A DNA stretch of 64,000 bases, taken from contig CP129478.1 of NCBI GenBank assembly GCA_030583845.1, positions 66,655 through 130,654 of the forward strand, read 5' to 3'. The position numbers and the translations under genes were made by a program. Shown piece after piece: positions 3,316 to 55,971 of the stretch (position 1 is its first letter; each line of letters opens with the position of its first letter). The notes beneath the pieces are model-generated. The model was not told where the DNA came from and ran no database searches. It worked only from the letters and a program-made list of their open reading frames with translations. Origin of the DNA: Candidatus Dojkabacteria bacterium (GTDB lineage: Bacteria; Patescibacteriota; Dojkabacteria; SC72; JAHDCA01).

Positions 3316-3333
3316 TGATATACTACACCAACC

Positions 3334-4689: not shown

Positions 4690-4778
4690 ATCAAGTGGTC
4701 AGATGTTCCTTCAACTGGACCTCCCCGCTAACCTACCATTCGTAATTTTAGAGAAGAATGATAGGTTAGCGGGGGAGG
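4690..4778. repeat. two hairpins in the rsmH-ftsL spacer; the second is the CCCCGCTAACCTA variant of the interspersed inverted-repeat (IR) family
   Basis: A 7-bp stem CCACTTG/CAAGTGG lies at 4690-4708. A second hairpin has arms CCTCCCCGCTAACCTAC (4720-4736) and TAGGTTAGCGGGGGAGG (4762-4778), about 16 bp with one bulge. Confidence 0.7.
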
Positions 4779-4843
4779 CCTGGTTGGGTGGCTCACACAG
4801 CACACACATTTATAGTAGGGACGGGATCAATTTAATAACTGCC

Positions 4844-11794: not shown

Positions 11795-11904
11795 AAGATC
11801 TGATTTGGATTTATTATTGACACTCGTCAGACAGAGTTATACTCTACCTTGCATATCCACCCGCTATAGGTTAGCGTGGTGACCATTAAATTTAGTAGTC
11901 CGCT

Positions 11905-28504: not shown

Positions 28505-28661
28505 CCCAAAGGGTAACCGTAAGTCTAAGCTTGTTTACAACGAAAGTTCGCAGGGCCACCTAAAGACAAAAAAGTCACGAAGGGCCAAGAGGCGAAAGAG
28601 CACTCGAACAGTAGTAAGTAGCTCCATTCAGAAGAGATATAAGAAAGTATTAAGCATATAG
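28440..28661 (+). CDS. rpmI: 50S ribosomal protein L35
   Basis: KTKKTALKRLRKSNPKGNRKSKL...HLKTKKSRRAKRRKSTRTVVS aligns with the L35 consensus. The ORF overlaps the infC 3' end by 65 nt in another frame. Confidence 0.7.
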   Translation: MARTRKPNKTKKTALKRLRKSNPKGNRKSKLVYNESSQGHLKTKKSRRAKRRKSTRTVVSSSIQKRYKKVLSI

Positions 28662-28667
28662 CAAATC

Positions 28668-29006
28668 ATGAGAACTAAGACAGGTATTGCAAGACGCAGA
28701 CGACACAATAAAGTATTGAAGGCAACCAAGGGTTATAGAATGACCAAGGGTCGTCTGTACCGCGTTTCACATGAGGCTTACCTCCACGCTGGTAACTACT
28801 CATTCGCACATAGAAAGCGAAGACCAACTCAGATTCGAAGAGTATGGATTGACAGAATCAATGCAGCCGCTCGCCTAAACGACACAACATATAGCGAGCT
28901 TATGGATAAGATGCACAAGGCGGATGTCAGACTAAACAAGAAAGTGCTTGCTGATATTGCATATAACAACCCTGAATCATTTAGTAGCCTAGTTAAGTCC
29001 TTGTAG
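28668..29006 (+). CDS. rplT: 50S ribosomal protein L20
   Basis: Canonical L20 sequence (ARRRRHNKVLKATKGY...WIDRINAAARLN). Confidence 0.9.
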   Translation: MRTKTGIARRRRHNKVLKATKGYRMTKGRLYRVSHEAYLHAGNYSFAHRKRRPTQIRRVWIDRINAAARLNDTTYSELMDKMHKADVRLNKKVLADIAYNNPESFSSLVKSL

Positions 29007-29030
29007 ATTCAGATTATAGTGGTGGATGAC

Positions 29031-29067
29031 AGGGACCTTTTACAAAATAAAAGGTCCCTTTTTATTT
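29031..29067 (+). terminator. rho-independent terminator after rplT
   Basis: 11-bp stem AGGGACCTTTT/AAAAGGTCCCT with a 7-nt loop, followed by TTTTATTT. Confidence 0.75.
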
Positions 29068-29091
29068 ATATATGGACTTAGGCTAATGAGT

Positions 29092-29139
29092 CCGCTAACT
29101 TATAGTCCGTCTCCGAGGCTTTGGACTATAAGTTAGCGG
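29092..29139. repeat. interspersed IR element, compact copy (17-bp perfect arms CCGCTAACTTATAGTCC, 14-nt loop)
   Basis: Arms at 29092-29108 and 29123-29139. Sits just upstream of the GGGTATAAT -10 element (29143-29151) of pheS. Confidence 0.85.
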
Positions 29140-29184
29140 GGATGGGTATAATGTGTATAATATATTGCTAAACAATTAACCTTC

Positions 29185-30231
29185 ATGAAAACAATGAGCA
29201 ACCAATCGAATCAGATAGAAGATGTAAGAAAAGAGCTTGAGCAAGATAGTCAAAATTTATCAGCTGACGAGATAAAGAAGAAATATCTCAGCAAGGGCGG
29301 TATCTTGAACTCCCTTCTAAGGGGCATAAAGGAAGTGGCATTGGAAGAGCGATCAAGATTTGGCAACGAGGCAAACGAATTGAAAAAGCAGATTGAGCAG
29401 ATCATTGATGCAGCCCAGAGTGACAAGCATATTGAGATCTCCACAGGTGAGAAGATCGACGTCACAGCACCATTTGATATCAATACTTCTACCGATAAGC
29501 GACCAGAGCTGATCTCAGCTCGTGGCTCGCAGCATCCACTCACCAAAGAGCTCGAGTATGTACTTGGTGTATTCGAGTCAATGGGATTCAATATTGAAGA
29601 GTGTCGCCAAATCGACAACGACTACAATATGTTCGAGGCATTAAATTTCCCGATCGGTCACCCTGCACGTGACCTGTGGGATACATTCTGGACAGATGAG
29701 AACCTTATACCACCTGCACATACGTCAACGATGCAAAACCGTGTGCTCAGGAATTACGAGATCCCTATTAGAGTTGTAGTACCAGGCCGATGCTTCCGCA
29801 ATGAAGCTACCGATGCCAGCCACGAGCATACACTTCACCAGATTGAGGGTGTGTATGTCGATGAGAATATTTCTGTAGGCGACATGATCGGCACAATTAA
29901 GACATATCTAGAAGCCTTCTTCCAGAAAGAGCTGAAGATTAAGCTTCAGCCTGCATATTTCCCATTTACTGAGCCAGATATTGAATTCTTGATTAATTGT
30001 CCATTCTGCAATGGCACAGGCTGCAGCATATGTGGCGGCACAGGTTGGATTGAGGCGATGGGTTGTGGAATGATCCATCCAAATGTGCTTGAGGAGGCAG
30101 GAATCGACTCGAAGAAATATACAGGGTTTGCCTGGGGATTCGGACTCGACAGGCTGGTGATGATAAAGCATGGTATTGAAGATATAAGGTGGCTGCATAG
30201 CGGAGACCTAGATTTCATTAAAAAATTTTAG
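29185..30231 (+). CDS. pheS: phenylalanine--tRNA ligase alpha subunit
   Basis: Class-II core with FPFTEPD and the Cys-rich CPFCNGTGCSICGGTGW insert. GFAWGFGLDRL motif 3. Confidence 0.9.
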   Translation: MKTMSNQSNQIEDVRKELEQDSQNLSADEIKKKYLSKGGILNSLLRGIKEVALEERSRFGNEANELKKQIEQIIDAAQSDKHIEISTGEKIDVTAPFDINTSTDKRPELISARGSQHPLTKELEYVLGVFESMGFNIEECRQIDNDYNMFEALNFPIGHPARDLWDTFWTDENLIPPAHTSTMQNRVLRNYEIPIRVVVPGRCFRNEATDASHEHTLHQIEGVYVDENISVGDMIGTIKTYLEAFFQKELKIKLQPAYFPFTEPDIEFLINCPFCNGTGCSICGGTGWIEAMGCGMIHPNVLEEAGIDSKKYTGFAWGFGLDRLVMIKHGIEDIRWLHSGDLDFIKKF

Positions 30232-30272
30232 CTTGATCGGGTTTTAACTTCATTAATTTTTAACCGCAAAAC

Positions 30273-32801
30273 ATGAAAATTTCATTAAACTGGATAAAAG
30301 AGCTCACACAGATAAACCTATTGACCGAAGAGTTTGTTGCACGCGTCCGAGCCCGAGTAGGTGAGGTCGAGGAGGTTATTGAGTATGACAAGAAGTACCA
30401 GAAGACTTTGCTTGCCCAGATCAAGGAGAAGCAGGAGCATCCAGAAGCCGACAAGCTGGCAATCTACAAGCTCGACATTGGGAGCGGCACAGATGTACAG
30501 GTAGTAGCTGGCGATAAAACGCTCGAAGTAGGTGACAAGGTCGCATATTTCCCACCGGAGACAGCGATCCCATACAACCCTAAGCCAGAGGAGCAAGGAA
30601 ACATCGTCAAGAAAGTGAAATTGCGAGGGATAGAGTCTAACGGTATGATCGCCTCTGCACGTGAGCTCGACATAAGCAACAACCACGAGCGGGTGATGCG
30701 GATGCACACAGATATGGCTCCAGGCACATCGATCAGCGAAGTGCTTGAGATGAATGATGTAGTCATTGATATCGAAAATAAGGCTCTAGCCAACCGTGCT
30801 GATTGCTTCGGGATCATTGGAATCGCTCGCGAAGCAGCGGGAATCCAAGGGCTAGAATTCAAATCGCCAGATTGGTATCTGGACCCGACAATTGAGCGAC
30901 CCGACACAGCTAGCAAAGAGGGTGGATTAGCTCTTAAAGTTGACAACCAGGCTGACAATCTCTGTCCACGCTATATGGCAGCAGTGATGTCAGGCATCCA
31001 GATAAAAGAATCGCCACTTTGGCTCCAGTCCAAGCTTGTAAAGTCGGGAGTACGCCCAATCAACAATATTGTCGACATCACCAACTACATCATGCTGCTT
31101 ACCGGGCAACCGCTTCATGCTTTCGACTACGACAAGCTGAAGGCAAAAGATACAAATGCCAAGGATAGCGCATATATAATTGTACGCCGTGCCAACACCG
31201 GTGAGGTTATCACAACACTCGACGGTAAGACTCATGAGCTCAACGACAGCAATGTAGTGATCTGCGATAGCTCCCACCCTGTGGCTATCGGAGGAGTAAT
31301 GGGCGGCCTCGATACTGAGATTGATGAAAACAGCAAGAACATCATTATCGAGTCAGCCAATTTCGAGAAGTCAAATATACGACGCACCTCGATGCAATTT
31401 GGACTGTTCTCTGAAGCTGTAACTAGATTTACCAAAGGCCAAGATCCGAATAAGTGCGAGAATGCTCTGTACCACGCCGTAAAGATGGTGGAAGAGCTGG
31501 CCAATGGCCAAGTTGCAGACAAGGTGCACGACATATATCAGCATCTCAGCGAGCCTCGACAGATCTCGGTCTCACTTGTGCGAGCTAACACGCATCTAGG
31601 TACAGAATTGAGCAGCGATGAGATCCACCAGATTTTAGAAAATGTTGAGCTACACAACCGAATGCTTGATGATGATCAGATGATTGTTGATATCCCGACA
31701 TACCGCAAAGATCTCCAGATCCCTGAAGATATCCACGAAGAGATCGGCCGACAGTACGGTTACGATAATATTCAAGTCACACTTCCAGGAAGGACATTGA
31801 TGCCGGCTGCTAAGAACCCAATCGTGGAGGTGCAGAAGTCAATTAGAAAGGCACTAACCGCAGCAGGGGCTGACGAGATCCTCACTTACAACTTCCGAGG
31901 CGCTGCTGATTTTGAGAACTTCAATCAGGATATTAAAAATGCATATCATATCAAGAATGCCCTATCGCCCGAGCTAGAGTATATGCGTACAAGCATCCTC
32001 CCATCAGTGTTAGAGAAGGTTAAGCTCAACTCCGTACGAGGCAAGTCGCACTTCGCGCTGTTCGAGATAAATAAATCCCATTCCAAGCTGAATGTAGACA
32101 AAGATGGCCTCCCGGTTGAGCAGCAGAGCGTTGCTTTTGGTATATCTATGGATGATAAGAGCGCCAAAGCTCAATACTCTGGATCGCCATACTATTTGGC
32201 CAAGCAGTATCTGGACGAGCTTATGCGAAGCCTAAATATCAATAGATACTCATATGAGCATCTAGCAGAGCTGCAGCTTGCCACATTGCCGTACTGGATC
32301 CAAAATCTTGTGCCACTTTTTAACAACAACGCTACAGCGATCGTGATAGCAGAGCGAGAAGGGGAGAAGAGCTATCTTGGAATTGTTGGCGATCTTAACC
32401 CAGTAGTGAAGAGTGATAACGGGCTAGCTCAGAACAGTGCAGGCTTCGAAATAGAGATAAAGGAGTTACAATACATAAATGATGGCGTGAGCAGCTATAG
32501 CGAGCCATCGAGATATCCTGCGGTCGTCGAGGATATCTGCTTCATAGTCGATAACTCAGTCCCAGCAGCCTATTTGCAGCAGGTAGGAGCAAAAGCCGTT
32601 GAGAGTAAAGAGCTTGTATCGAATGTATCGATTCTCGACATCTATCAGACAGATGAGCAGAAGAAGCAGGAGAAGAAGCAAGTCACGATCAGCATCATGC
32701 TTCAACATAAGGAGAAAACATTATCCGGGGAAGATGTATCAGCACTAGTGGGCAAAGTGTCCGATAAGGTCACCAAAGCAACTGGCGGGAAGGTAAAATA
32801 A
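30273..32801 (+). CDS. pheT: phenylalanine--tRNA ligase beta subunit
   Basis: 842 aa. N-terminal tRNA-binding domain, B3/B4 and B5 domains and a C-terminal FDX-ACB domain. Immediately downstream of pheS. Confidence 0.9.
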   Translation: MKISLNWIKELTQINLLTEEFVARVRARVGEVEEVIEYDKKYQKTLLAQIKEKQEHPEADKLAIYKLDIGSGTDVQVVAGDKTLEVGDKVAYFPPETAIPYNPKPEEQGNIVKKVKLRGIESNGMIASARELDISNNHERVMRMHTDMAPGTSISEVLEMNDVVIDIENKALANRADCFGIIGIAREAAGIQGLEFKSPDWYLDPTIERPDTASKEGGLALKVDNQADNLCPRYMAAVMSGIQIKESPLWLQSKLVKSGVRPINNIVDITNYIMLLTGQPLHAFDYDKLKAKDTNAKDSAYIIVRRANTGEVITTLDGKTHELNDSNVVICDSSHPVAIGGVMGGLDTEIDENSKNIIIESANFEKSNIRRTSMQFGLFSEAVTRFTKGQDPNKCENALYHAVKMVEELANGQVADKVHDIYQHLSEPRQISVSLVRANTHLGTELSSDEIHQILENVELHNRMLDDDQMIVDIPTYRKDLQIPEDIHEEIGRQYGYDNIQVTLPGRTLMPAAKNPIVEVQKSIRKALTAAGADEILTYNFRGAADFENFNQDIKNAYHIKNALSPELEYMRTSILPSVLEKVKLNSVRGKSHFALFEINKSHSKLNVDKDGLPVEQQSVAFGISMDDKSAKAQYSGSPYYLAKQYLDELMRSLNINRYSYEHLAELQLATLPYWIQNLVPLFNNNATAIVIAEREGEKSYLGIVGDLNPVVKSDNGLAQNSAGFEIEIKELQYINDGVSSYSEPSRYPAVVEDICFIVDNSVPAAYLQQVGAKAVESKELVSNVSILDIYQTDEQKKQEKKQVTISIMLQHKEKTLSGEDVSALVGKVSDKVTKATGGKVK

Positions 32802-32922
32802 CTAGTCCCGCTAACTTATAGTATGGTTTCAGGAATCATAACAATGATCAATCGCTTGTAGCTGATGAAAAAACAACATATGATCGGAGCATATACACGC
32901 TATAAGTTAGCGGGACTAGTTA
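32799..32922. repeat. interspersed IR element, MITE-like copy (23-bp terminal inverted repeats TAACTAGTCCCGCTAACTTATAG flanking a 78-bp core)
   Basis: Left arm at 32799-32821 and right arm at 32900-32922. The TAA stop of pheT and the TAG stop of the convergent PBP1A gene both lie inside the terminal repeats. Confidence 0.85.
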
Positions 32923-35900
32923 ACCCTTATAGTAATCTCTGAAACAATAATCGTAGTACCGCTGACAGAGCGAGCAGTTACAGTATACTCCCCATCTCCA
33001 GCGCCAATATCGTTCCAGTTAACGCTCCAACCACCGTTAGAGCTGTTGTCAGTATAGGTTCTTGTGTAATCAACATCTACCCCCTGAATTACAAATGTCA
33101 CACTCAACGGTGTGAAGCCAGAGGCTGTAACCTCTAAGGCATGAGGTATCGAGATAGTCTGATTGTTGGTTGGGGTGACCCAGTTCAACGATCCAGCATT
33201 GCCTGTGACAGTCACATTGATGCTAGTTGTACCTATTCGACCTGCGCTATCTACAGCACGTGCTGTGACTAGCATATTTCCAGCTACCCGGCCCGATGGT
33301 ACTGTGTACCTCAGCTGATATGGTGAGCTATCGTCTTCAATATCTACAGGTGAGCCATCGATCAGAAGCTCTACATAGTTTAGCGACCCTGTGAATCGGA
33401 CGTCTACATCAACCACGAGCTGCTCGCCAGCATCGATTGATGAGCCGGTGGCAGGAGAAGTGATTGTTGGGACAGGCTCGCCATTTGGACCTAGCGGTAG
33501 GTCACAGTTTGCTGACTCAGGCTGATTGAATACGAACATTCTTCGTCCATCGGTCTCAAGGTTGTCAAAGAATGCAGCAATAGTGCCCAGCTGTGCTCCG
33601 TTTTCTGGTGTGAAATTCAACCAGGTCTTGTCTTCTAGTATGTCGGGGAACTGTGAGGCTTGGTTGTAGTTTGATGCTATCTTGCCGTTTGAGCGGCATA
33701 TATGAGCAGTTTCCCGTTTATCCTCTCCAGGCTTGCGGGAATTCACATAAACTGTTTTCTCCTTCGAACAAGGAGTACTGTCGGAAGCCAGCCTTCCGGT
33801 ATCTCTACACACCTGGCCCTCGCTGACATTGGCCGGGCGTGAGTATAACTGTGAGGGATACTTACTTGAGACCCTCTCCATAAATGAGTGAGCAATAGGC
33901 AATGGCACAGTAGTGCTCCATGCACCAGGAACTTCTTCACCGTTGTTATTGCCGGCCCATACGCCGACTACCAGATTTTTATGATACTGCATAGATACAA
34001 GGTCCTTTGGACCGTTGGTTGTACCGGTCTTACCACAGATTGCTGGCTTACCACCGATATTATAGTAATACTGTGGTGCGCTACGCATGATCTGATCGCT
34101 GTGTGCACCAAGATCGCATAATGTCCAGTTCAATAGGTAGATATCCTCTTCCGAGAAGATTCTTTCACTCTTTTCCTCATACTCCTTTAACACCTCACCC
34201 TTTGAGTTTTCGACTTTTAGAAACGGCGTCACATCGCGCTTAATACCACCGGTGGCAAATATAGAGTATGCACCGGCATGCTCAAGAAGCGACATCTCAG
34301 CAGTTCCCAATGTGAAGCTAAGGCCATAGTTGCTTGGATCTCCGAGAGTTGTGATACCCATCTTCTCCATGTTAGCCATGACATTTTCCAGCCCGACAGC
34401 TTGCAATGTGTAAACCGCCGGTCGGTTTCTTGATTTCACAAGTGCTTCACGAGCAGTCATGATTCCCAAGGTCTTGGTATCCCAGTTTGGTGGGTTATAG
34501 TTACCGAAGCTCATCTCTGCAATGTCAGGGGCGGACATCCATGGGCCCCATCGCTGGAAAGCAGTAAAGTATGTGTATGACTTTACCGAAGAGCCTTGCT
34601 GCCTCAGAGCAGTTGTAACATTTACATTTCCGTCGATCCTCGGATCATCGGTGATTGTCGGGTCGACCGAGCCGACCATGGCAAGTATCTGGCCGGTGTT
34701 TGGGTCAATCGCGACCAATGCACCGTTGTAGACGCCCCATTTATTTCCATACTGCTTTATACCGTTCCTGATCTCCTCTTCGGCGACAATCTGGGTCGAC
34801 ATATCAAGTGTAGTTGTAACTTTCAGTCCTCCACGAGTTAGCATCTCATGGCCGAATTCCTGCTCGAGCTGCTGCTGTACATAGAATACGAAATGATAAG
34901 CTGGAATATCGTTGGTCAAAGTCTTGTAAACGATCTCTTCTTCAGCAGCTGCCTGGAGCTCTTCCTCGGATACTCCGGTCAGCTTCTTATGCTTCGACAT
35001 CTGATCGAGTACATATGCCTGTCTTACCTTTGCGCCTTCCTGCTCAACACCATAGATTGGTGCATAGTAGGTAGGGCTCTGGATCATCCCTGCGAGCATT
35101 GCGCTTTCAGCAAGTGTAAGATCACGGATATCCTTGCCGAAGTAGGCCTTCGAGGCAGACTGGAAGCCATAGTTTACGCTTCCCATAAACACCTCGTTCA
35201 TGTAAAGCTGGAGGATTTCATCTTTTGTGAATGTCTGCTCAACCTGCATGGTCAGTAGCATCTCTTTAAGCTTTCGCCTTGCAGCTTTTAGGAAATTGCT
35301 TCTCTCATAACACTCATCTCCGAATGCTTCATAACAGAGCGTGTTTCTTACCAACTGCTGGGAGATCGTGCTAGCACCACACACATCACCCGAGCCGGTG
35401 AGATACGATCTAGTGCTTTTAATACCACAACTTGTTATACCCTTCCAGTCGAGACCCTTATGCTCGTAGAATTCCACATCCTCAGCGGCAAGCAGTGCCC
35501 ATTTTGTGTGCTCTGGAATATCCTCCAGATCAACAAACTCGCGATTTTCTTCGGAGTAAACCTTAAAGAGCTCTTTCTTGCCGGTTCTATCATAAATTAT
35601 CGTGCTTCCGGCTACATCTCTCTCAATCAGCTTATCCGGATCAGGTAGCGATTGCTGCAGACCTTTCAAATATATGCCTAAAGCTATAAATGCAATTGCG
35701 GTTGTGACAAACGCAAATCCAAACATATATGCAAACAGCCTCTTGAAAAATAGCTTTCTATTCTTGGCTCCTGCTGATGGGCGTCCGCTACTTTTCGGCT
35801 TCTTGCCCACAAATCCGTTCCAAAGCTGGCCAATATTGGTCATGCTATTAAAGCGCCTCATGGTGGAGCGACCACTGGTGCGGCTTGCTGAGTGGCTGAT

Positions 35901-36050
35901 ATTTCCTGGCGATTTGTAGTTATGGGCGGATGAACGCTTATGCGCGGCGACAGAAGAGGCCCGAATCCTTCTCGGTGATGGCCTTCTCATGCGTCTACTT
36001 GCGTGTGCGCCAGTTGGGTTGTGGTCTGTAAATCCCATGTTGTATTTCAT
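32916..36050 (-). CDS. bifunctional class-A penicillin-binding protein (PBP1A-type glycosyltransferase/transpeptidase) with C-terminal Ig-like domains
   Basis: GT51 motif AAEDVEFYEHKGLD. Transpeptidase KTG motif (CGKTGTT). Arg-rich N-terminal tail and TM. About 300 aa of C-terminal beta-rich Ig-like repeats. Confidence 0.85.
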   Translation of the reverse strand: MKYNMGFTDHNPTGAHASRRMRRPSPRRIRASSVAAHKRSSAHNYKSPGNISHSASRTSGRSTMRRFNSMTNIGQLWNGFVGKKPKSSGRPSAGAKNRKLFFKRLFAYMFGFAFVTTAIAFIALGIYLKGLQQSLPDPDKLIERDVAGSTIIYDRTGKKELFKVYSEENREFVDLEDIPEHTKWALLAAEDVEFYEHKGLDWKGITSCGIKSTRSYLTGSGDVCGASTISQQLVRNTLCYEAFGDECYERSNFLKAARRKLKEMLLTMQVEQTFTKDEILQLYMNEVFMGSVNYGFQSASKAYFGKDIRDLTLAESAMLAGMIQSPTYYAPIYGVEQEGAKVRQAYVLDQMSKHKKLTGVSEEELQAAAEEEIVYKTLTNDIPAYHFVFYVQQQLEQEFGHEMLTRGGLKVTTTLDMSTQIVAEEEIRNGIKQYGNKWGVYNGALVAIDPNTGQILAMVGSVDPTITDDPRIDGNVNVTTALRQQGSSVKSYTYFTAFQRWGPWMSAPDIAEMSFGNYNPPNWDTKTLGIMTAREALVKSRNRPAVYTLQAVGLENVMANMEKMGITTLGDPSNYGLSFTLGTAEMSLLEHAGAYSIFATGGIKRDVTPFLKVENSKGEVLKEYEEKSERIFSEEDIYLLNWTLCDLGAHSDQIMRSAPQYYYNIGGKPAICGKTGTTNGPKDLVSMQYHKNLVVGVWAGNNNGEEVPGAWSTTVPLPIAHSFMERVSSKYPSQLYSRPANVSEGQVCRDTGRLASDSTPCSKEKTVYVNSRKPGEDKRETAHICRSNGKIASNYNQASQFPDILEDKTWLNFTPENGAQLGTIAAFFDNLETDGRRMFVFNQPESANCDLPLGPNGEPVPTITSPATGSSIDAGEQLVVDVDVRFTGSLNYVELLIDGSPVDIEDDSSPYQLRYTVPSGRVAGNMLVTARAVDSAGRIGTTSINVTVTGNAGSLNWVTPTNNQTISIPHALEVTASGFTPLSVTFVIQGVDVDYTRTYTDNSSNGGWSVNWNDIGAGDGEYTVTARSVSGTTIIVSEITIRVN

Positions 36051-36087
36051 CGTGTATGATTATACGCAACATTAAATGAATAGTCAC

Positions 36088-36151
36088 TCCGACAACCTAA
36101 CGTTTAAAAATAGTTGCGAGCAAATTGTTTTTAAGCGTTAGGTTGTCGGAG
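36088..36151. repeat. 24-bp inverted repeat (1 mismatch) forming a strong hairpin
   Basis: CTCCGACAACCTAACGTTTAAAAA ... TTTTTAAGCGTTAGGTTGTCGGAG. It overlaps the stop of the 36138-36908 gene and lies upstream of a TATAAT element (minus strand) before PBP1A. Confidence 0.7.
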
Positions 36152-36908
36152 GGCGCACGTACTTTGAGTCTGGAGTTGAGAGTTTTCCCAAGCCTGCATA
36201 TCCGTTGTACAACGCCTTAAATTTCTCTAAATTTTTAGATACTGTCAACCATAGCCACACACCAAGCGCCAAAACTACAGCTCCAAAAAAGAAGTTGAGG
36301 GCGCTATTGACTACATCGGGCATGATTGGGTACAAGAACAGCCTTATCAAGAGATAAATTACAAAAATCACTACAAAAGCAAGAATGGTTTTCTGGTTAA
36401 ATCGGGTAAAGTTGCCATCGACCATCTCCTGGAGCATCCCCTCCGAGCTCTGGTTGCGCTGGTAATTCTTAATCATGCGCGTCATTGCCCATACCTGATA
36501 TGCTTTCTGTACCTCAAACCCTTTGCGCAACGTAAAATCCTTAGGTACCTGATTTGGCTCCGTTACTGCCATTCTGGGCAATTCCTCAAAGGCACGCATC
36601 TTGTCGAGGTCCTCGCGCTTATCTGCAAAATAGTAGAATTTCCCCTCAAGAAACTGCTGCACGATGCTAAATTTCGGGACCTCGCCTAGATACTCAATGT
36701 CAAGCTCGCCAAAGTTATAGATCTCTAGAATCTCGTCGTAGCTTACAATAAAGTGGCTCTGGGTGAGATATAGGGTAGGGGTGACAAAATCGATCACATT
36801 GGTGTCTAGCGGGACAATTTCGAATTTGGTAATAATAGCTTCACCGCGGGCGGCCTTGCTAACGTTTGCTTCTTTTGTCTCAAGCGGGTCGAGTCGGACA
36901 GATATCAT
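36138..36908 (-). CDS. hypothetical membrane protein (two C-terminal TM helices)
   Basis: 256 aa with no catalytic motif recognised. Confidence 0.35.
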   Translation of the reverse strand: MISVRLDPLETKEANVSKAARGEAIITKFEIVPLDTNVIDFVTPTLYLTQSHFIVSYDEILEIYNFGELDIEYLGEVPKFSIVQQFLEGKFYYFADKREDLDKMRAFEELPRMAVTEPNQVPKDFTLRKGFEVQKAYQVWAMTRMIKNYQRNQSSEGMLQEMVDGNFTRFNQKTILAFVVIFVIYLLIRLFLYPIMPDVVNSALNFFFGAVVLALGVWLWLTVSKNLEKFKALYNGYAGLGKLSTPDSKYVRPPTT

Positions 36909-36921
36909 GCTTTATCTTACC

Positions 36922-37069
36922 CCGCTAACTTATAGAACACAACATATTAACCCTAGAAGCCGCAAATATAGCCCAAACTTTCCATTTCATGAAAATATAA
37001 TTAAATAATATGCTAAAATCGTTAATTCCCAGCTAAATATTTAATCTTCAGCGCATTATAAGTTAGCGG
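36922..37069. repeat. interspersed IR element (13-bp arms CCGCTAACTTATA flanking a 122-bp AT-rich core)
   Basis: Arms at 36922-36934 and 37057-37069. The element spans the divergent promoter region, and its right arm abuts the ATG of the M16 peptidase gene (37071). Confidence 0.8.
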
Positions 37070-37070
37070 C

Positions 37071-38369
37071 ATGAGATACAGGCACGAAACATTAAAAAAT
37101 GGATTGAGGGTGCTGGCAATCGGCACACCACAATTTAAATCGATCAACGTCCAGGTAAAGCTGCACGGCGGCCCATCGCTTGAGACCAAGAAAAACAATG
37201 GTATAAGCCATTTCGTAGAGCACATGGTGCTTGAAGGTGGCAAGCTGCACCCAGATAAGAACAAGTTTGACGAAGAGATCGAGCTGCTAGGAGGCGACTA
37301 CAATGGCTACACCTCTCACTATTCAGTTGGATTTACAATCTCAGTGCCGGATACCCACCTGCACTATGCGGTGGAGTACATGTACGATGTTTGCTTCCAG
37401 CCCACATTTCCAGAGGAGAGGCTCGAGAAGGAGCGCACAGCAATACTCGACGAGATTCACAATTATGAGAGCCGCCCAAACAGGAAATACTCAGATTTCT
37501 ACAGGAAGACTCGCTACCTAAACAACAGCGCACCGCTCCCGATTGTGGGCAAAGCGTCGCATGTCTCCAAAATGAGCCGCACAGCCTTGATGGAGTGGCA
37601 TAAAAAGCTGTTCGTTCCAGATAACATGACGATCTGCATAGTCGGCAATATCGACCCAGACGAGGCTGTGAGATATGTGGAGGAGGCATTTGGTGTAGAA
37701 AAAGCCTCAGGCCTAGATTTCCAGAAGGAGACGGCAACTTCGGAGCTATCGGGAAGGAGCATCAAGACCCAAGTTGATACGAATGAGACAAAGTCGATTG
37801 GCGCTATCACATTGCCAAGCTTAGAGCTACGACTGGATAATTTCAAAGAAAGACTGACTCTGTCGATGATTGCAGCTATATTTGCCAACTATAGAAGCAG
37901 CGTGCTATTTAAGAAGCTCCGAAAGGAGACAGGCATGATCTACTCGATCGGGGGAAGCTTCTCATCGGCGCTGAACGAGCCCGGCTATTTCGATATCGAT
38001 TTCACCACCTCAGACGACAAGATAATCACAGTGTACGAGATGGTATTTGAAGAGATTAAAAGATTGCTCAGAGATGGGTTCACAGAGAGAGAGCTGCAGA
38101 TCGGGATCGAGGGGAGCATCAATAGCCTCAAGATGGGGTGTAGCTCAATATCTGACTTCACCGACTGGTATATGCCTGGTATCTTCTGGTTTAACCGCTT
38201 CATGACCATAGAAGAGGAGATAAAGATGAAGGAGAGCATCACACTCGACGAGACAAATGCACTGTTCAGAGAGACTTTTAAGTGGGATAGGGTGAACATC
38301 ATAAGCAGGGTAAATAGCCCTTCGGTACGGACGAAATTGAACAGAAAGCTCGAGGAAGTCGTGCGCTAG
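37071..38369 (+). CDS. M16-family (insulinase/pitrilysin-like) zinc peptidase
   Basis: Inverted zinc motif HFVEHMVLEG (HxxEH). Length 432 aa. Confidence 0.75.
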   Translation: MRYRHETLKNGLRVLAIGTPQFKSINVQVKLHGGPSLETKKNNGISHFVEHMVLEGGKLHPDKNKFDEEIELLGGDYNGYTSHYSVGFTISVPDTHLHYAVEYMYDVCFQPTFPEERLEKERTAILDEIHNYESRPNRKYSDFYRKTRYLNNSAPLPIVGKASHVSKMSRTALMEWHKKLFVPDNMTICIVGNIDPDEAVRYVEEAFGVEKASGLDFQKETATSELSGRSIKTQVDTNETKSIGAITLPSLELRLDNFKERLTLSMIAAIFANYRSSVLFKKLRKETGMIYSIGGSFSSALNEPGYFDIDFTTSDDKIITVYEMVFEEIKRLLRDGFTERELQIGIEGSINSLKMGCSSISDFTDWYMPGIFWFNRFMTIEEEIKMKESITLDETNALFRETFKWDRVNIISRVNSPSVRTKLNRKLEEVVR

Positions 38370-40950: not shown

Positions 40951-42081
40951 TTACTGCTGAGAGTTATAGTAGTTGAGCCACCTCTTGTTAACACTTTCAA
41001 GTAGCTCTTCGTTTGTCATCCCTTTATGTATAGGATGCGGACAGACAGTACCATATTCCAATGCACACTGGTCATTCCAGTACTCGACTTCATACTCCAT
41101 ACGGTGCTCATACTCTTGACGACTCTCTAGATCGTCTGGTTCGTTGCCGAAGATAAAGTACTTCTCTGTCGTGTCGAATGATCCGATCAGGGCCGCAATC
41201 TTGTCTGACTCTCCCACCAAGGTCTCTTCAGTCGCTCTGATCGTATGTCTGAATTTCTGACCGTACTGATCTTCAATTGCATAGTCGATGACATATACGG
41301 TCTCTTCATCCGGCACGCCATCATCATCCAGCATCTCTAGATAGATATATAGTTTCTCAAATTTAGAATCCTCAACATTAATCACGCCGAGCATATAGAA
41401 ATCATTGCTTTCCCCCCATATCTTATTGGCTCTAGTCTGGATAAGTGATTGCTCGGTTACCCACTCTAAACTACGACCATAAAACGCATGGTATTTAAAG
41501 TATGTAATCTGAAAAGGTGGAGTCTCGGTAGAACCGGTTACTCCAAGGTCGGTGCGATACTGTACGAAGTTGTGATACTTGTTCATGTTGTTCTCGCATA
41601 GCTGACAGAAATACTCACTGCGCGCTATAACGCTTCCGAATGGTGCAGGTGCCATGCTCTTATCTACTAGATAGCTCATCCCATGCAGATTATAGTTCTC
41701 CTCAAGTCCATGATTTTCCGGGTAGGGTGCATCAAACAGATATACTGTCGGATATTTAAATCCGTATATCTCCTCAATATCTTCTACAGACTCTATCTCC
41801 GGTATGTCGAACTGATAATCCTTAAGAACCTCGTCCACATTGCTGAAATTAAGGAGTACGGGCTCGAGTACAGCGGATTCTATCGGAGACTTCTCCTCTA
41901 TAGGTGGCTCTTCCTCAACTGCCGGAGGTGGATCAACCTCTTCTAGTTGTGTCTCACTATTTAAGATATATATAGATGTTGCGGCTGAGGCACAGCAGCA
42001 GAGCATTAAGACCAGAAACAGTGCCGCGACCAGTGCTGGGATGAAGTACTTGTGCTGAGTAATGTTTTTCGTTGGTTCCAT
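40951..42081 (-). CDS. hypothetical protein with N-terminal TM
   Basis: 376 aa. N-terminal TM and an aromatic/acidic-rich extracytoplasmic region. Confidence 0.35.
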   Translation of the reverse strand: MEPTKNITQHKYFIPALVAALFLVLMLCCCASAATSIYILNSETQLEEVDPPPAVEEEPPIEEKSPIESAVLEPVLLNFSNVDEVLKDYQFDIPEIESVEDIEEIYGFKYPTVYLFDAPYPENHGLEENYNLHGMSYLVDKSMAPAPFGSVIARSEYFCQLCENNMNKYHNFVQYRTDLGVTGSTETPPFQITYFKYHAFYGRSLEWVTEQSLIQTRANKIWGESNDFYMLGVINVEDSKFEKLYIYLEMLDDDGVPDEETVYVIDYAIEDQYGQKFRHTIRATEETLVGESDKIAALIGSFDTTEKYFIFGNEPDDLESRQEYEHRMEYEVEYWNDQCALEYGTVCPHPIHKGMTNEELLESVNKRWLNYYNSQQ

Positions 42082-43233: not shown

Positions 43234-43950
43234 TTAATGGAGCGTTTGAGTTCCTGCCATCCTGAAAGCTGACTCAAAGTGATCTCCAAATGGAAAAATC
43301 TTGACGCTGATTAGACCCATTCTCGACCTTGTCAGATCTTCAACTATTCCCTCTGGCTTTGAAAGGTTAGCCTTGGAGATAAAGTGTAGTGCCTGTTTGG
43401 TGTTAAACAGATGCATAAAGAGTCTGCGGGTCATAGCAATGTACAGCTCTTCTTCGGCCTCCTCTTCTTCTCCGATAAACTCCCATGCTATATTGTAACG
43501 AGAAAGTTTGACTGAGGCCGTCTTTAACAGTCGTCTCTGAGCCTCCTGCGCTGTCATACACTCACCTCGCGATTTCGCCTTATCTTTAGCATTAATGTAG
43601 CCATGAACAAGTGCTCCATCTACGAGTTCATAGCACTCCTCATAAAAGCAGCTCAGAGTAGCTCTAAACTGGTCAAATAGATCAAAAGGGGTACGTTCTT
43701 CAATACCTGTCTGACGCAAATTATCGTGATCAATAAAATCTCTAACAAACTTTGCCATACCAATTATACGATTAGATTCTCCTGCGTACTCCATACTTCC
43801 ATAGGATTCTTGGATAATAAGCCCCAACAGTCCCATCGATGCCGCGAGGCTCATTCCTGGCTTCTCTGTTTGCTCTTGTCTGTGTTCTAGCCAGCCCACT
43901 AGGGTGGGAGAGATTGTTTTTAGTTCAGGTTTCGTAAGCGTTTTATCCAT
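43234..43950 (-). CDS. hypothetical protein
   Basis: 238-aa soluble ORF at the left border of the R-M island with no motif recognised. Confidence 0.3.
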   Translation of the reverse strand: MDKTLTKPELKTISPTLVGWLEHRQEQTEKPGMSLAASMGLLGLIIQESYGSMEYAGESNRIIGMAKFVRDFIDHDNLRQTGIEERTPFDLFDQFRATLSCFYEECYELVDGALVHGYINAKDKAKSRGECMTAQEAQRRLLKTASVKLSRYNIAWEFIGEEEEAEEELYIAMTRRLFMHLFNTKQALHFISKANLSKPEGIVEDLTRSRMGLISVKIFPFGDHFESAFRMAGTQTLH

Positions 43951-44052
43951 GCGGGATTATACCGCTAGTAATAACATAACGCTATAGGGTTGCGACATAT
44001 TAAGAAGTAAATGAGGCAACGCTGATGTTTCCGTTTAACTGGCGTAGAAGGC

Positions 44053-44127
44053 TATACCCAGCTGGCCTCAGTCTCCAGAAAGATTATAGAGCAACTCAAG
44101 TTGAAAGATTTCACCGCTGGGTATAAT
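44053..44127 (+). promoter_or_regulatory. candidate autoregulatory operator and promoter of the HTH-methyltransferase
   Basis: 10-bp inverted repeat TATACCCAGC (44053-44062) / GCTGGGTATA (44116-44125). The downstream copy overlaps the GGGTATAAT -10 (44122-44127). A CCAGCTGG palindrome is also present at 44057-44064. Confidence 0.45.
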
Positions 44128-44149
44128 ATATCACTAAATTGAAACCGTT

Positions 44150-45364
44150 ATGTATTTATCACAGAAATTACAACAAGAGAGAGAATTTAAAGGTCTAACT
44201 CAAAGAGAGCTTGCCGACTTATCTGGGGTAAATTACTCAACAATTACCAAGCTTGAGAGCGGTGTGTATCAAAATCCTACTCTCGATACCATTATGAAAA
44301 TAAGTAGCGCCCTTGAGATAAAGATTGAAAGTCTCTTACAACCGCGGAAAGAATTTGGAATGCCTTCTAACACAATGATTGAATCCCACGCTGAAGTCAA
44401 AGGTGTAAAATTTACCTTTATTGACCTCTTCGCAGGTATTGGAGGAATTAGAATTGCCTTTGAGAGGCAAGGCGGGCGCTCTTTGTTTTCTTCTGAAATT
44501 GATAAGTATGCGGTTAAAACCTACCAAGCTAACTACGGTGAGACGCCTGCTGGCGATATTACCCAAATTGATGCCACAAATATACCTGATCACGATATTT
44601 TACTAGCAGGATTTCCATGCCAACCTTTTTCAATCGCTGGAGTTTCAAAAAGGCAGAGTTTGGGCAGGGGTCACGGTTTCTTTGATGAAACAAAGGGAAC
44701 ATTATTTTTCGACATCGCAAGAATTATTGAAGTGAAGAGGCCTAAAATCGTGTTTCTCGAAAATGTGAAGAACCTTATGTCACATGATAAAGGAAGGACT
44801 TTCGAAGTAATAATCAACACACTAAAAGAGCTTGATTACATACCATACTATAAAGTTAATGACGGACAGCATTTTGTCCCACAGCACAGGGAAAGAACAA
44901 TTATTGTAGCTTTTGATAATAAAGTATTTAAAGGCAAAGAGAATTTTGAATTTCCAGAGCTACCTAAAAAAGAAGTGAGGCTCTCAGATATTCTTGAAAA
45001 AGAGGTTGACCCTAAATATACACTTACTGATAAACTGTGGGAGTATCTTCAAAACTATGCGAAAAAACATAAAGAAAAGGGTAATGGATTTGGTTATGGG
45101 CTTGCTGATTTTAATGGAATCACTAGAACCTTAAGTGCTAGGTATTACAAAGATGGATCAGAGATTCTTATCCCTCAGGAAGGTAAAAACCCAAGAAGGC
45201 TTACCCCAAGAGAATGTGCAAGACTTCAAGGTTTCCCTGAGGATTTCATAATTCCTGTTTCCGATACACAAGCATATAAGCAGTTCGGAAATGCTGTAGT
45301 TGTTCCTTTAATGGAGTACTTAGCTAATTCAGTTGTTAAATCATTAGGATATGTTAGAAAATAA
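44150..45364 (+). CDS. DNA (cytosine-5)-methyltransferase with an N-terminal XRE-type HTH regulatory domain (M.EcoRII/M.SsoII-like)
   Basis: N-terminal HTH ([23 protein letters not shown]). C5-MTase motifs [50 protein letters not shown] and [10 protein letters not shown]. Confidence 0.9.
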
Positions 45365-46529
45365 TTTTGCAGGTCAGGCAATTGAGGCTGTTAAAAGAGG
45401 TTCTGTAGCTTTCTCGAAATTTATAACTTCAAACGATGCTGGAGTAACTGGAGGTCATCAAAGTGGATTCCATCTACATAAGAACTCATACCCTCTTTTT
45501 TTTGAGACTCAAGGAGTCAAAGGTGAAAATAGTGAAAAATTTGCAAAGATAAAATGGCAGGGAGATTTTGAAACAGACAGCAGGTTTATCTACTATGGGG
45601 TCGGTACAAGAGATGAATACAGACTTACAAGGTTCGGCAAAGGATTTCCGTTTTTAACAGAGGAAAGCGTTGGAAACCTTCTTATTCTTACTAAACAGAC
45701 AGATGAGTACTACGAGGCGTTTGTACTTTCAAGTGATGATGAGATAGAAACCTTCTTCAGTGCATTCGGCATAAGTCCACAGGAAACAAATAAAATCATT
45801 CCTAAAACAAATACTGTAAGTGTTGAAGATCAGCTTATGAAGATGTTTGAGGCTTACATAGGTACTATCAGCGTTGATTTCCCTCTTACAACCGAGATTG
45901 CAGATAATGCTAGGAAAATAATTATGCAGGTTTCTGGAATATCTACAATTGATGTCAAATCTAATCCAGATAAGGAGCTTTTGAGATGGCTTGATACAGA
46001 GTATAAGTTATTTAAAACTATTGAGAATAATAGATATTCAAACATCATAGGGCAACCTTTTAAGGATGTAGATTCTTTCATACAAACAGCGAACAGCATT
46101 TTAAATAGAAGAAAAAGTAGAGCTGGAAAGTCACTTGAGCATCACCTTTCAAATATGTTTACAACTTTTGATTTGAAATTCAGTGAGCAGACTGTAACAG
46201 AAGAGCACAAAAAGCCTGATTTCATCTTCCCAAGCCCGGAAGCATATCACAATTTTTTATTTGATCAGAATAAGCTTGTTTTTCTTGCAGCGAAAACAAC
46301 ATGCAAAGACAGATGGAGACAGATCTTGAATGAAGCTGACAGAATCAAAGTAAAACATTTATTTACATTACAGCAGGGAATATCTTCCAATCAGATGAAA
46401 GAAATGACGCGCTACAATGTTAAACTTGTTGTTCCAAAAGAATATATAAACACTTATCCTAAGGAGTACAGAGAAGGAATTTATTCGCTTGGTCAGTTTG
46501 TAAGATACGTCGATGCAACTCAAAAATAG
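45351..46529 (+). CDS. EcoRII-family type IIE restriction endonuclease (likely CCWGG-type specificity)
   Basis: Overlaps the MTase end by 14 nt. The N-terminal effector domain ([18 protein letters not shown]) resembles the EcoRII-N B3-like domain. C-terminal catalytic-domain signatures [42 protein letters not shown] and HLFTLQQG match my recollection of EcoRII; this comparison is from memory and was not aligned. Confidence 0.7.
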
Positions 46530-46558
46530 TGACAGACAACTAACAAAGAGCCTAGAAT

Positions 46559-46645
46559 ATGTCTAGAGACACCTCGGTAAGACAGATTCTTGAAAATAAA
46601 GAATGGAAAGTGATCTATATATGGGAATGTAAAATGAGAACCGGA
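46559..46645 (+). pseudogene. vsr: remnant of very-short-patch repair endonuclease gene vsr (C-terminal about 27 codons only)
   Basis: Translation RDTSVRQILENKEWKVIYIWECKMRTG matches the Vsr C-terminus (...RDRRVNEALEAQGWRVLIVWECALRG). In-frame stops lie immediately upstream. Only 29 nt separate the REase stop from this fragment, so about 120 N-terminal codons are missing. Confidence 0.6.
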
Positions 46646-46693
46646 CATAATATTTTCAAAATTTTACGAATACAAGATCTTGCTGATAGCAAG

Positions 46694-47914
46694 CTAATCA
46701 GGTGGCTCTTGGATATGTGCTTGAAAATAGATTATCTCGTTGACCAAGTTTTTCTGCGTATACTTCATTTCTTGGTATTTGTAGTAATCATTGAAGTACC
46801 CACTTAGGCTTGCGAGTTGCCTGCTGAATCTTCCAAGAAATGCTGTTACGCCTTCTAAAGTGAAATCAACAGAGTCAATGCCATCACCTAGGTCATCTAA
46901 CATCTTTCTGCAAACAAAGTATCGACCAAAATCCGTACTATTACCACGCAGCTTCGGTTTTGTTATTAAAAGTGGTTCATAGATGGGCTTGTAGATGTCG
47001 AGTTCCATTTCTTCGCTCATGTTCTGCGTAGCTTGGTGCAACCTTATTGCCCTTGTAATCGTATCATTTGATCTTGGCTCCAATACTAAAAGCTGGCTAT
47101 AGGCATATTTTATTACTGAAGAGACGACGGTCCCACTATACTTCTTCAAAGGCATATCTTTATCTTTTTTCCAATCTAGAAGTGTTGATAACACTACGCC
47201 CCAAAATATATAACGACCATATTCACACTGTAGGCAACTGTTGGGTGTTTCTGATAAAACTTCTTTCGAGATTACAAAGAGATAGAAAGAAACAACTTCA
47301 GACATGAGTGCTCCTTGTGAGATATCATGCAGTAACTCTCTATCACATTCTGCTACATTCCTTATACAGTTCGTTGCAATGCTTTGTGCGATACTCTTGC
47401 TGTTGTCTTCAAGTTTTCGTGGTCTTTCATAATCATTAACCCAAGTAAGATCGAGCCACTTTGATAAACAGATAAAACCGTTAAGAAGATGATTTATACC
47501 TTTAGTATTACCATGTACAACCACCTCATATAAAGACTCCGTGATTTTATCCATTCTACCTCGCCTAGAGTTAATCCAAATTTCCAACGGGGACAATCTG
47601 ACGCCAAACGGCACTAAGGCATTATACACAAGCAAGTTAGTTGCGATATCAAAGGTGTATGGGCCACCTGCATTAATTTCGTGAGAACGTATTTCACATA
47701 GGTAGCTATGAGGCATCCTTTTCAATACTCTACCAATAACAGAGACATACAATGAAAAATCTTTGAGGGTTAATAGTTGCGGCGTGTCAGCATTACCAAA
47801 AAAGCTATCTATTAATCGATTCGCCAGAAAATAATCCCCTTCCAACTCAGTTTCGCCCACAAGTGCAAGGGTAATTATTCGCCAATTCTCACATTCAGCG
47901 TCTAAAACTGCCAA
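46694..47914 (-). CDS. hypothetical 406-aa protein adjacent to the R-M module (possible defence-associated, HEPN/Abi-like?)
   Basis: AT-rich like the R-M genes. Soluble protein with a single Rx4H match (RAIRLH). No confident family assignment. Confidence 0.4.
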   Translation of the reverse strand: MAVLDAECENWRIITLALVGETELEGDYFLANRLIDSFFGNADTPQLLTLKDFSLYVSVIGRVLKRMPHSYLCEIRSHEINAGGPYTFDIATNLLVYNALVPFGVRLSPLEIWINSRRGRMDKITESLYEVVVHGNTKGINHLLNGFICLSKWLDLTWVNDYERPRKLEDNSKSIAQSIATNCIRNVAECDRELLHDISQGALMSEVVSFYLFVISKEVLSETPNSCLQCEYGRYIFWGVVLSTLLDWKKDKDMPLKKYSGTVVSSVIKYAYSQLLVLEPRSNDTITRAIRLHQATQNMSEEMELDIYKPIYEPLLITKPKLRGNSTDFGRYFVCRKMLDDLGDGIDSVDFTLEGVTAFLGRFSRQLASLSGYFNDYYKYQEMKYTQKNLVNEIIYFQAHIQEPPD

Positions 47915-48057
47915 GGATACTTCTTAGCCATCAATATTCTTAAAAACCTTCTAGGATTTAACAATTTCCTTCTTGTTTGCGGATACAACAAAAAACCCTC
48001 AATGTATGAACTGTGCATACTTGTAAATCTGCAAAGTTAAATCAGTACATTACATCA

Positions 48058-52266: not shown

Positions 52267-52887
52267 TTACTCCGCTTCAACAGGCCAGTTCAATTTCATA
52301 AACCAGCTATTAAATATCTCTTTCGAGACAATTAGCCTACTGTTGTACTCCCCGAAGTCGAAGATCCTGCCAGTAAACCGACTTGGCTTGAGGTTCCCAG
52401 CGAGTATTTCTATACCCTCGTCACTTGCGACGCTTTCATACAATTTACCGAAGCTAGCCACAGGATCTACATCGATAGATGACAGTAACACTGGTGCTCT
52501 GAATTCATAATTCCGATACAGCAGGAAGTAGCCTTGATCAGTAACAACCAGCATCGCCATATTCCTATTTGTGTCCATTACTCCGTAGCATGCATTCTGA
52601 GCTGTACCGAACTTCCCATCCTGTTCAAGCCCTGTAAACCCAGTAAAGATTATAACCCTTGATTTTTCAATCATCTCAAGAGATTCATTTCCATTTTCAT
52701 ACTCCATAATCATCTCCTCCATCAAGGGAACAACTGCCGAGTAGTATGCTGTTTCTCCATCATTATGCTTGACCCATGGTGCACGATTGAATTCTTCCAT
52801 GTACAGCTCGAGGGGAAATCGCTCACTCTTCTCTCCGTACTCAACTGCCAGGTTTTCTAATCTCTCACTACTTGGTCCACCCATCAC
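52267..52887 (-). CDS. hypothetical protein translationally coupled to mutS, paralogue family member E
   Basis: 206 aa. Its start overlaps the mutS stop (ATGA). Segments SERFPLELY...APW and DQGYFLLYRNYEF are shared with the ORF at 49789. Confidence 0.4.
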   Translation of the reverse strand: MMGGPSSERLENLAVEYGEKSERFPLELYMEEFNRAPWVKHNDGETAYYSAVVPLMEEMIMEYENGNESLEMIEKSRVIIFTGFTGLEQDGKFGTAQNACYGVMDTNRNMAMLVVTDQGYFLLYRNYEFRAPVLLSSIDVDPVASFGKLYESVASDEGIEILAGNLKPSRFTGRIFDFGEYNSRLIVSKEIFNSWFMKLNWPVEAE

Positions 52888-55514: not shown

Positions 55515-55516
55515 GT

Positions 55517-55936: not shown

Positions 55937-55971
55937 ACTGAACGTTTATGAGCCGTAGACTGTTTACAGCT

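Follow-up and report, generated by a model that had tools for sequence, protein, structure and literature searches.

An inverted repeat stands just ahead of pheS in a genome of Candidatus Dojkabacteria, and arms of the same sequence recur at other gene boundaries within the 64,000-nucleotide stretch of DNA analysed here (the window). The locus raises the question of whether these arms belong to a spreading repeat, to a regulatory site, or to a structural signal read in the RNA. The initial annotation had described a family of interspersed inverted repeats reminiscent of Neisseria Correia elements or REP/MITE families, and had offered the operator of a global regulator as the alternative. The copies in the window are listed below; the pairs carry no assigned strand.

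225 to 237, plus strand: degenerate solo arm CTATACTTAGCGG, upstream of the HAD-hydrolase gene at 302.
4720 to 4778, no assigned strand: TAGG-variant hairpin pair, between mraW and the ftsL-like/ftsI genes.
11860 to 11878, plus strand: collapsed copy CCCGCTATAGGTTAGCGTG, 28 nt upstream of the rarA start codon.
29092 to 29139, no assigned strand: hairpin pair with arms CCGCTAACTTATAGTCC and GGACTATAAGTTAGCGG, 17-bp perfect, with a 14-nt loop.
32799 to 32922, no assigned strand: wide pair, its 23-bp arms (TAACTAGTCCCGCTAACTTATAG) perfect and its core 78 nt long, in the spacer of the convergent genes pheT and PBP1A.
36922 to 37069, no assigned strand: wide pair, with arms of 14 and 13 nt around a core of about 120 nt, between a gene for a 256-aa hypothetical protein (minus strand) and an M16 peptidase gene (plus strand).
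54842 to 54858, minus strand: exact 17-mer arm GGACTATAAGTTAGCGG, inside mutS at codons ~217-223 (..ADYKLAA..).

The claim that the motif recurs far beyond chance is upheld: at up to two mismatches, CCGCTAACTTATAG/CTATAAGTTAGCGG has 8 matches in the window, against 0.42 expected for a 14-mer from dinucleotide shuffles of the window, and none of 100 shuffles reaches 8. The 8-mer GTTAGCGG occurs nine times in the window, each time within a copy of the family. Ten clear arms are present (four inverted pairs, the collapsed copy and the mutS copy), and 19 arms lie in the 83 kb of genome scanned when the flanks are added to the window, which excludes a chance-level count. The full arm, of approximately 18 nt, reads CGNA-CTATARGTTAGCGG; across 37 arms from six sources the consensus reads C(-4) G(-3) N A(-1) CTATARGTTAGCGG, followed by a weak G-rich continuation. 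A position weight matrix (PWM) built from those 37 arms, which score at least 16.7 bits, gives a bimodal distribution: the scanned sequence has no match above 14 and below 16.7 bits, and the scan found no ungapped, partly decayed arms. In 670 kb of unrelated viral DNA it scores only the exact 14-mers by which those loci had been selected. Viral contigs contain 79 single chance matches to the 14-mer and no match to the pair pattern, and carriage by phage was rejected because the pair pattern is missing there. No Rfam family reaches its gathering score across positions 1-64000 of the window, with no tRNA, riboswitch or leader among them, and a full-text literature search returned no description of this Dojkabacteria repeat.

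Copies are concentrated between genes. Putative genes occupy 91% of the window and non-coding sequence 8.9%, yet the latter holds six of the seven window loci (P = 3e-6), and a coding location is seen at one locus in 11. Density along the chromosome is also uneven: the 9.3 kb beyond the right end of the window, read from a Logan contig 99.66% identical to that end, hold nine further arms (four pairs and one solo), whereas the scan found none in the 9.7 kb beyond the left end. Between 2 and 7.3 kb of contig L114, from a close strain, an arm pair or single copy is found in nearly every spacer.

The geometries that had been given for the individual copies proved largely accurate. The pair at 29092-29139 has exactly the perfect arms and loop described; it sits after the intrinsic terminator of rplT (29031-29059) and ahead of the TATAAT boxes of pheS, and it folds at -31.1 kcal/mol on the plus strand (z -5.7) and -29.8 kcal/mol on the minus strand (z -8.4). 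The wide pair at 32799-32922 is likewise as claimed, with both stop codons, TAA for pheT and TAG for PBP1A, in or at its arms, and folds at -47.6 kcal/mol (z -8.0). The variant pair at 4720-4778 is present with 16-nt arms of the TAGG variant, CCTCCCCGCTAACCTA (4720-4735) and TAGGTTAGCGGGGGAGG (4762-4778), and folds at -37.7 kcal/mol (z -7.1); a 98.75%-identical strain carries TAAG in the right arm, which creates a C.A mismatch. Both a mechanical open reading frame and the public gene call at 4703-5197 (14404-14898 of contig L113) begin upstream of this hairpin and run through it, and the true start of the ftsL-like gene is probably the ATG near 4846. The pair at 36922-37069 matches its description in arm length, core and divergent neighbours, abuts two start codons and has a fold z-score of -2.6. 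Across the five pair folds, four reach z -5.7 to -8.4 and this one is the fifth; the pairs form very stable hairpins as single-stranded DNA or RNA, from either strand.

Of the three degenerate solo copies that had been proposed, one is genuine, one was partly misread and one falls away. The copy placed at about 224-239 is real and lies at 225-237, where CTATACTTAGCGG carries one substitution and a one-base deletion and is too degenerate for an ungapped PWM scan. The copy upstream of rarA (given as 11859-11876) exists; it is a collapsed 5-bp mini-palindrome, CGCTA-TAGGT-TAGCG, rather than a solo arm, and forms a small hairpin (z -2.8). The sequence at 59499-59508 amounts to a 9-nt match (ATAAGTTAG) that is indistinguishable from chance.

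The genes of the window are housekeeping genes (mraZ/mraW, PBPs, truB, rarA, recG, thrS-infC-rplT, pheST, hisS and mutS). Most have a TATAAT-like box 5-12 nt before the ATG, with no visible Shine-Dalgarno sequence; examples are the genes at 3334, 9499, 24567 and 38489 and, on the minus strand, at 32916-36050, 40951-42081, 43234-43950 and 52884-55514. Because of the position of the box and the missing Shine-Dalgarno sequence, leaderless mRNAs appear, from sequence, to be used almost throughout the genome. The interval at 44001-48000 has a G+C content of 0.374 against 0.44-0.48 elsewhere, and approximately 10 kb of the window are missing from the gene arrangement of the lineage of a syntenic relative, L093, so this region is a candidate for an acquired island.

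Several arms overlap or abut promoter regions, as would be expected of the operator of a global transcription factor. At the divergent pair, the right arm ends 1 nt before the ATG of the M16 gene and places TAAGTT at the leaderless -10 position, so that one arm may supply the -10 box of a leaderless gene; on the other side, an arm fills the spacer between the TTGTGT -35 box and the TAAGAT -10 box of the 256-aa gene. An operator is nevertheless hardly credible as a general explanation, since the two arms can be anywhere between 3 and 127 nt apart, mutS, rRNA helices and convergent gene ends all contain copies, and orthologous promoters show no conservation of the arms; the rRNA and convergent-end copies largely refute it. 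A general promoter function was rejected on related grounds, as most arms either precede a -10 box distinct from them or lie at the ends of genes or in rRNA, and so was a role in processing transcripts to leaderless mRNA, as the distance from an arm to the downstream ATG ranges from 1 to ~160 nt.

The one coding copy in the window, at 54842-54858 in mutS, was absent from the initial annotation. The arm lies in its only open frame, has a degenerate partner arm just upstream, and is in frame with the length of the gene unchanged; the region forms no stable hairpin (z -1.1). MutS aligns here without gaps to E. coli MutS and to relatives of 79% and 61% identity, and nine consecutive codons differ from the relatives at the site of the arm. 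From this alignment the copy looks like a replacement or in-place evolution rather than a net insertion, and a simple cut-and-paste model fails to explain it.

A change of sequence at constant length is what a DNA uptake sequence would leave behind, where the bias of the competence machinery accumulates the motif and inverted pairs form at stems. The mutS copy and a copy in helix 6 of a 16S rRNA (described below) both arose in this way, one of the copies is in a genome-maintenance gene, and CPR bacteria are thought to depend on DNA uptake, which counts in favour of such an origin. The distribution of the family argues in the other direction, with one coding locus in 11 in a window that is 91% coding, almost no single or one-off copies, wide pairs that are always inverted and in one configuration, and a density that changes from nine arms in 9.3 kb to none in 9.7 kb. 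An uptake sequence is therefore regarded as very improbable.

The anatomy of the pairs was compared across 18 examples. All 18 are oriented CCGCTAAC...GTTAGCGG, and neither the opposite inverted arrangement nor a direct arrangement occurs in any; 15 of them came from scanning for single arms, so the single orientation is not an artefact of the search pattern. The interiors range from 3 to 127 nt, the shortest being a 3-nt loop at L093 7535-7573, the spacing between the 14-mers is 11 to 127 nt, and total element length runs from 39 to ~155 bp with no length classes. The stems closed by the arms are 14-26 bp long. A single arm can form at most a 5-bp stem with a 2-nt bulge, which is perfect only in the copy at 11860.

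The cores had been described as lacking homology, which is borne out within the window, and an all-against-all comparison of the 18 interiors found one related pair only. This is the right half of L114 4327-4481 and the solo copy at L114 7204, which have 68 nt and an arm in common at 87% identity; their homology stops exactly at the outer GCGG. The pair at L114 2211-2367 has perfect 26-nt arms (CTATAGGTTAGCGGGGTGGTCGGGTT), exceeding the shared motif by 12 nt, and a G-rich tail (GGTGG/GGATG) similar to that of this pair trails many other arms. In several copies the palindrome reaches 4-12 nt outside the conserved block, and the pairing that flanks the block on both sides uses different sequences in different copies. 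Compensatory change is marked, with 14 of 22 stem positions altered on both sides and none of 500 shuffles reaching the observed values. At the variable R/Y position of the arms the combinations are T-A in six, C-G in five, T.G in six and C.A in two, and covariation between the arms at this position is not significant.

These features bear directly on the Correia-like part of the earlier description and on the rival explanation of a true MITE of the Correia or IS630 kind, in which the arms would be the terminal inverted repeats of deletion derivatives of an insertion sequence that inserts at TA/CTAG. The pair at 32799-32922, flanked by ACTAGT on both sides, is the only copy compatible with a CTAG target and a duplicated TA; the homology of one duplicated copy ends at the outer GCGG; and -10-like hexamers lie near arm ends, as they do near the ends of Correia elements. 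However, no other copy has a TA/CTAG duplication, and no target-site duplication of any kind, TA or other, is consistent across copies. The cores show no homology next to the arms, lengths of 39 to ~155 bp form no classes, the palindrome continues 4-12 nt past the conserved block in several copies, and no full-length or autonomous element with these ends was seen in ~250 kb of the window, flanks and relatives. Such a MITE is consequently considered improbable, and the Correia likeness, which calls for a conserved core, a fixed length class, a consistent duplication and a palindrome that does not so often exceed the block, was abandoned. The broader REP/MITE-type reading fared better: the repeat is beyond chance, is almost exclusively intergenic and differs in presence between relatives.

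Inverted repeats held in common around unrelated interiors of 78-127 bp, one of which contains an extended -10 box (TGCTAAAAT), could also be invertons, in which the arms bound promoter-switching segments flipped by one master invertase. Most interiors are only 3-38 nt and too short for inversion, copies lie inside rRNA, the promoters of neighbouring genes are outside the pairs, no flipped orientation is present in four independent (consensus) assemblies, and no recombinase gene is nearby, which leaves inversion a highly improbable explanation.

A link to a transposase of the RAYT type was also considered. A Y1_Tnp gene encoding 197-199 aa is fixed in four L093-lineage strains, where it stands between mutS and a PPDK-like (PEP-utilising enzyme) gene, at the following positions.

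L108, 9388-9981: Y1 transposase gene.
L110, 9388-9981: Y1 transposase gene.
L111, 1859-2452: Y1 transposase gene.
L112, 9382-9981: Y1 transposase gene.

The link to the repeat was rejected, as this transposase of a sister lineage has no arms in its flanks. Its protein scores 32 bits against the NCBIfam model REP_Tyr_transpos, for which the cut-off is 80, and the fixed position of the gene looks like domestication. The syntenic gap in the window (55515-56611) holds two unknown open reading frames, 55517-55936 on the plus strand and 55972-56538 on the minus strand. No Y1 homologue was found in the window or the fetched flanks, and none of the best 120 database matches lies on a contig as long as that of the window's genome. 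A 48%-identical homologue, the nearest relative found, is encoded on L116, another CPR contig, which is without the motif and where it is bracketed by an inverted repeat of its own, GCTGCGAACCA / TGGTTCGCAGC (~8190 and 8903-8918), unrelated to the motif.

The distribution of the copies among relatives shows turnover at the scale of genera. Strains 98.75-100% identical to the window (L001, L002, L113, L114 and L115) all have the same copies, and no empty-versus-filled site was found among them. Differences in presence appear only at ~71% nucleotide identity, where flanks no longer align, and alignment of orthologous spacers to define insertion boundaries was dropped because the spacers are too diverged. 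At that distance stands L093, a syntenic relative with a 72% identical PheT, which carries pairs in two spacers, thrS-infC and trpR-hisS, and, ahead of rsmD, a solo arm. L093 has no pair at pheT/PBP1A, where its spacer is 50 bp, or between the hypothetical and M16 genes, and the pair at 36922-37069 is absent from L094 and L109 as well. The PWM scan found zero copies in L094 (65% identity, 12.6 kb) and L109 (54-61%, 22.6 kb). Between its pheT and PBP1A genes, the spacer that holds the wide hairpin pair in the window, L094 has an extra gene (2661-4046) for a 461-aa protein with no Pfam match.

One spacer is occupied in both lineages. Between rplT and pheS, the window and L093 have pairs whose 14-nt arms are identical but which differ in loop, in flanks and in how far they lie from the terminator and from the -10 box. 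With three and four spacers occupied among ~25, one common spacer is expected by chance at an estimated ~40%, so this pair is not proof of ancient conservation; copies behaving as conserved syntenic elements were found at one of about seven comparable sites, within chance. Over shorter distances the arms change less than their surroundings. In the trpR-hisS pair of four L093-lineage strains (93-99% identical), 0 of 28 arm positions are substituted against 17 of 100 core positions (P = 0.02). Between L108 18358 and L111 12803 or L112 20314, the part of the trpR-like gene that encodes the C-terminus differs by an indel of 18 nt (6 codons), which directly abuts the outer end of an arm; the TAA stop of the gene comes from that arm.

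A narrow-pair scan of 185,579 species-representative genomes gave 11 matches, nine of them ordinary unrelated hairpins, so that narrow pairs with the full motif occur in only two of the genomes, L092 and L090, and additionally in one rRNA operon from JGI. In L092, a Dojkabacteria MAG, the pair lies between convergent genes and provides a TAA stop.

The two other cases are in rRNA, where hairpins were placed by covariance-model alignments. In L090, a MAG labelled Saccharibacteria, the pair constitutes helix 6 (V1) of the 16S rRNA, and helix 10 (V2) is lengthened by 57 nt through a degenerate pair. The JGI operon (L100, the same as L104) has four motif hairpins, at the tip of 16S helix 44 and in 23S helix 25, at ~H45 (a position inferred from a coordinate offset) and in helix 98. 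The two 16S genes are 82% identical with their hairpins in different helices, and L104 has ordinary V1 and V2 sequences. The helix 6 hairpin of L090 is no longer than the motif-free helix 6 of L104, from which comparison the L090 copy, like that in mutS, looks like a replacement or in-place evolution, not an insertion. Most non-Watson-Crick pairs of the rRNA copies are G.U when read on the rRNA strand, which would be expected of a stem maintained at the RNA level. All six sites (H25, H45, H98, h6, h10 and h44) are what we take to be the classic tips that carry intervening sequences or tolerate insertion. The repeat alters 16S V1, V2 and V9 in some lineages.

The main rival to a spreading repeat is a host cis-element, in which the arm is the site of a conserved sequence-specific protein or RNase. 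The pairs would then mark the boundaries of transcription units as factor-dependent terminators, insulators or RNA-processing stems, and the rRNA stems would direct excision or processing. Such a function is consistent with the lack of ungapped, partly decayed copies, with arms that are kept while cores and flanks diverge, with the same arm in genomes whose 16S genes are 82% identical, and with the punctuation-like filling of nearly every spacer of L114 2-7.3 kb. It is also consistent with the small number of predicted intrinsic terminators at 28600-37300 (8, against 6.4 in shuffles) and with the gathering of G.U pairs on the transcribed strand of the rRNA copies. Positions nevertheless differ between the window and L093, and the family is missing from the next relatives examined. 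Copies stand between divergent promoters, where a terminator is unneeded, start-codon distances spread from 1 to 160 nt, the R/Y position of the arms shows no covariation, and no candidate protein was identified. Host function is therefore a tentative alternative that we consider rather unlikely. A related but more doubtful proposal joins the two ideas, with the arm as a stem module read by a CPR factor on rRNA and at gene boundaries, a form of maturation punctuation that also spreads between lineages. The factor would mark the 16S and 23S helix extensions for excision or binding and would also act at the gene boundaries of a genome that relies on almost entirely leaderless mRNAs.

The explanation that we prefer, with confidence about evenly balanced, is a clade-restricted palindromic repeat, similar to REP/REPIN and to rRNA intervening sequences (IVSs), that is spreading or turning over, with copies tolerated at the boundaries of genes and at the tips of rRNA helices. 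It accords with the long, invariant arm, the almost constant inverted pairing, the intergenic bias, the entry into gene ends, a protein loop and rRNA, the patchy occurrence among lineages with sites that differ between relatives, and the single clear duplication. The motif would be the conserved arm (5'-CGNA-CTATARGTTAGCGG-3') of short palindromic repeats in Candidatus Dojkabacteria, and the family would be selfish or at least dynamic DNA whose copies are gained and lost on the time scale that separates genera. We infer that the repeat is mobile, and that a trans-acting factor may read the 18-nt arm, which would explain why the arm is constant across very divergent genomes while its surroundings change. 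Copies are found in spacers, in the final codons of genes, in a MutS loop that is variable and, in other genomes, at the tips of rRNA helices on the periphery. At such places a hairpin does little harm, and selection would filter copies accordingly, leaving those whose stem is neutral or of use. The stem would lengthen a helix in rRNA, as an intervening sequence does; in mRNA it would probably serve as an insulator, as a 3' end or as the substrate of an RNase III-type enzyme.

Certain observations weigh against a mobile repeat. The analysis found no empty site between close strains, no consistent target-site duplication, no autonomous element and no transposase linked to the motif. The interiors are unrelated, unlike those of a unit that copies itself whole, and the mutS and L090 helix 6 copies alter sequence and not length. 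The lack of ungapped decayed copies and the near-identical arm at 82% 16S identity also fit purifying selection on a host function.

CPR genomes are tiny and dense, and interspersed repeats are not a known trait of CPR bacteria, yet in this one arms of a single 18-nt stem sequence are spaced at about one per 1-6 kb. The repeat sets stop codons and possibly a -10 box, and supplies expansion hairpins in both rRNAs. It is a likely cause of assembly breaks in these MAGs, and the fixed 18-mer offers a handle for finding the factor that recognises it.

Several known systems resemble the repeat in part. The attC sites of integrons have outer CTAAC...GTTAG boxes in the same orientation and a conserved stem with a variable terminal structure of 3 to >100 nt. 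In the Dojkabacteria repeat, however, the stems pair perfectly, with no base left extrahelical, neither cassette arrays nor an integrase accompany them, and copies are found among housekeeping genes and in rRNA. The Correia elements of Neisseria (CREE/NEMIS) also have inverted-repeat ends, intergenic locations near promoters, -10-like hexamers and hairpin transcripts, but differ in their conserved core, which contains an IHF site, in their two length classes and in their TA duplication, all of which the present family lacks.

The short palindromic repeats of Volvox mitochondria and plastids fill spacers, nest and enter an rRNA module (PMC2670323), and by analogy they are the nearest behavioural counterpart found (PMC2670323). 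Together with the GC clusters of yeast mitochondria and the palindromic elements of Rickettsia, they resemble the present family as hairpin-forming and, here presumably, selfish repeats, which occupy spacers, intrude into protein genes or rRNA-coding modules if tolerated there, and nest to give heterogeneous units. The organellar and Rickettsia families differ in having a conserved loop or core and a large non-coding share, whereas here only a stem segment of ~18 nt is conserved and the host is a compact 1-Mb CPR genome.

REP, REPIN and BIME repeats, which are mobilised by RAYT (Y1 HUH) transposases, are similar as short intergenic repeats (for the present family, hundreds per genome if extrapolated), as inverted doublets folding into long hairpins, with a clade-specific, patchy occurrence, and in the weak internal palindrome of each arm, CG(NA)CTA...TAGCG. 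The differences are that the GTAG/GGAG head is lacking and a single arm forms at best a 5-bp stem, that doublet spacing is not fixed (3-127 nt), and that no RAYT flanked by the Dojkabacteria repeat was found and copies lie inside rRNA genes. The last of these features is shared with rRNA intervening sequences, which form extended stem-loops at the same helix tips (H25, ~H45 and H98; h6, h10 and h44), are sporadically distributed among lineages, and are excised by RNase III to leave fragmented rRNA. We know of no report of such intervening sequences as members of a genome-wide intergenic repeat family that shares an identical stem. Intervening sequences of rRNA and REP/MITE-like intergenic repeats are usually treated apart, and here the two are tied to one sequence family.
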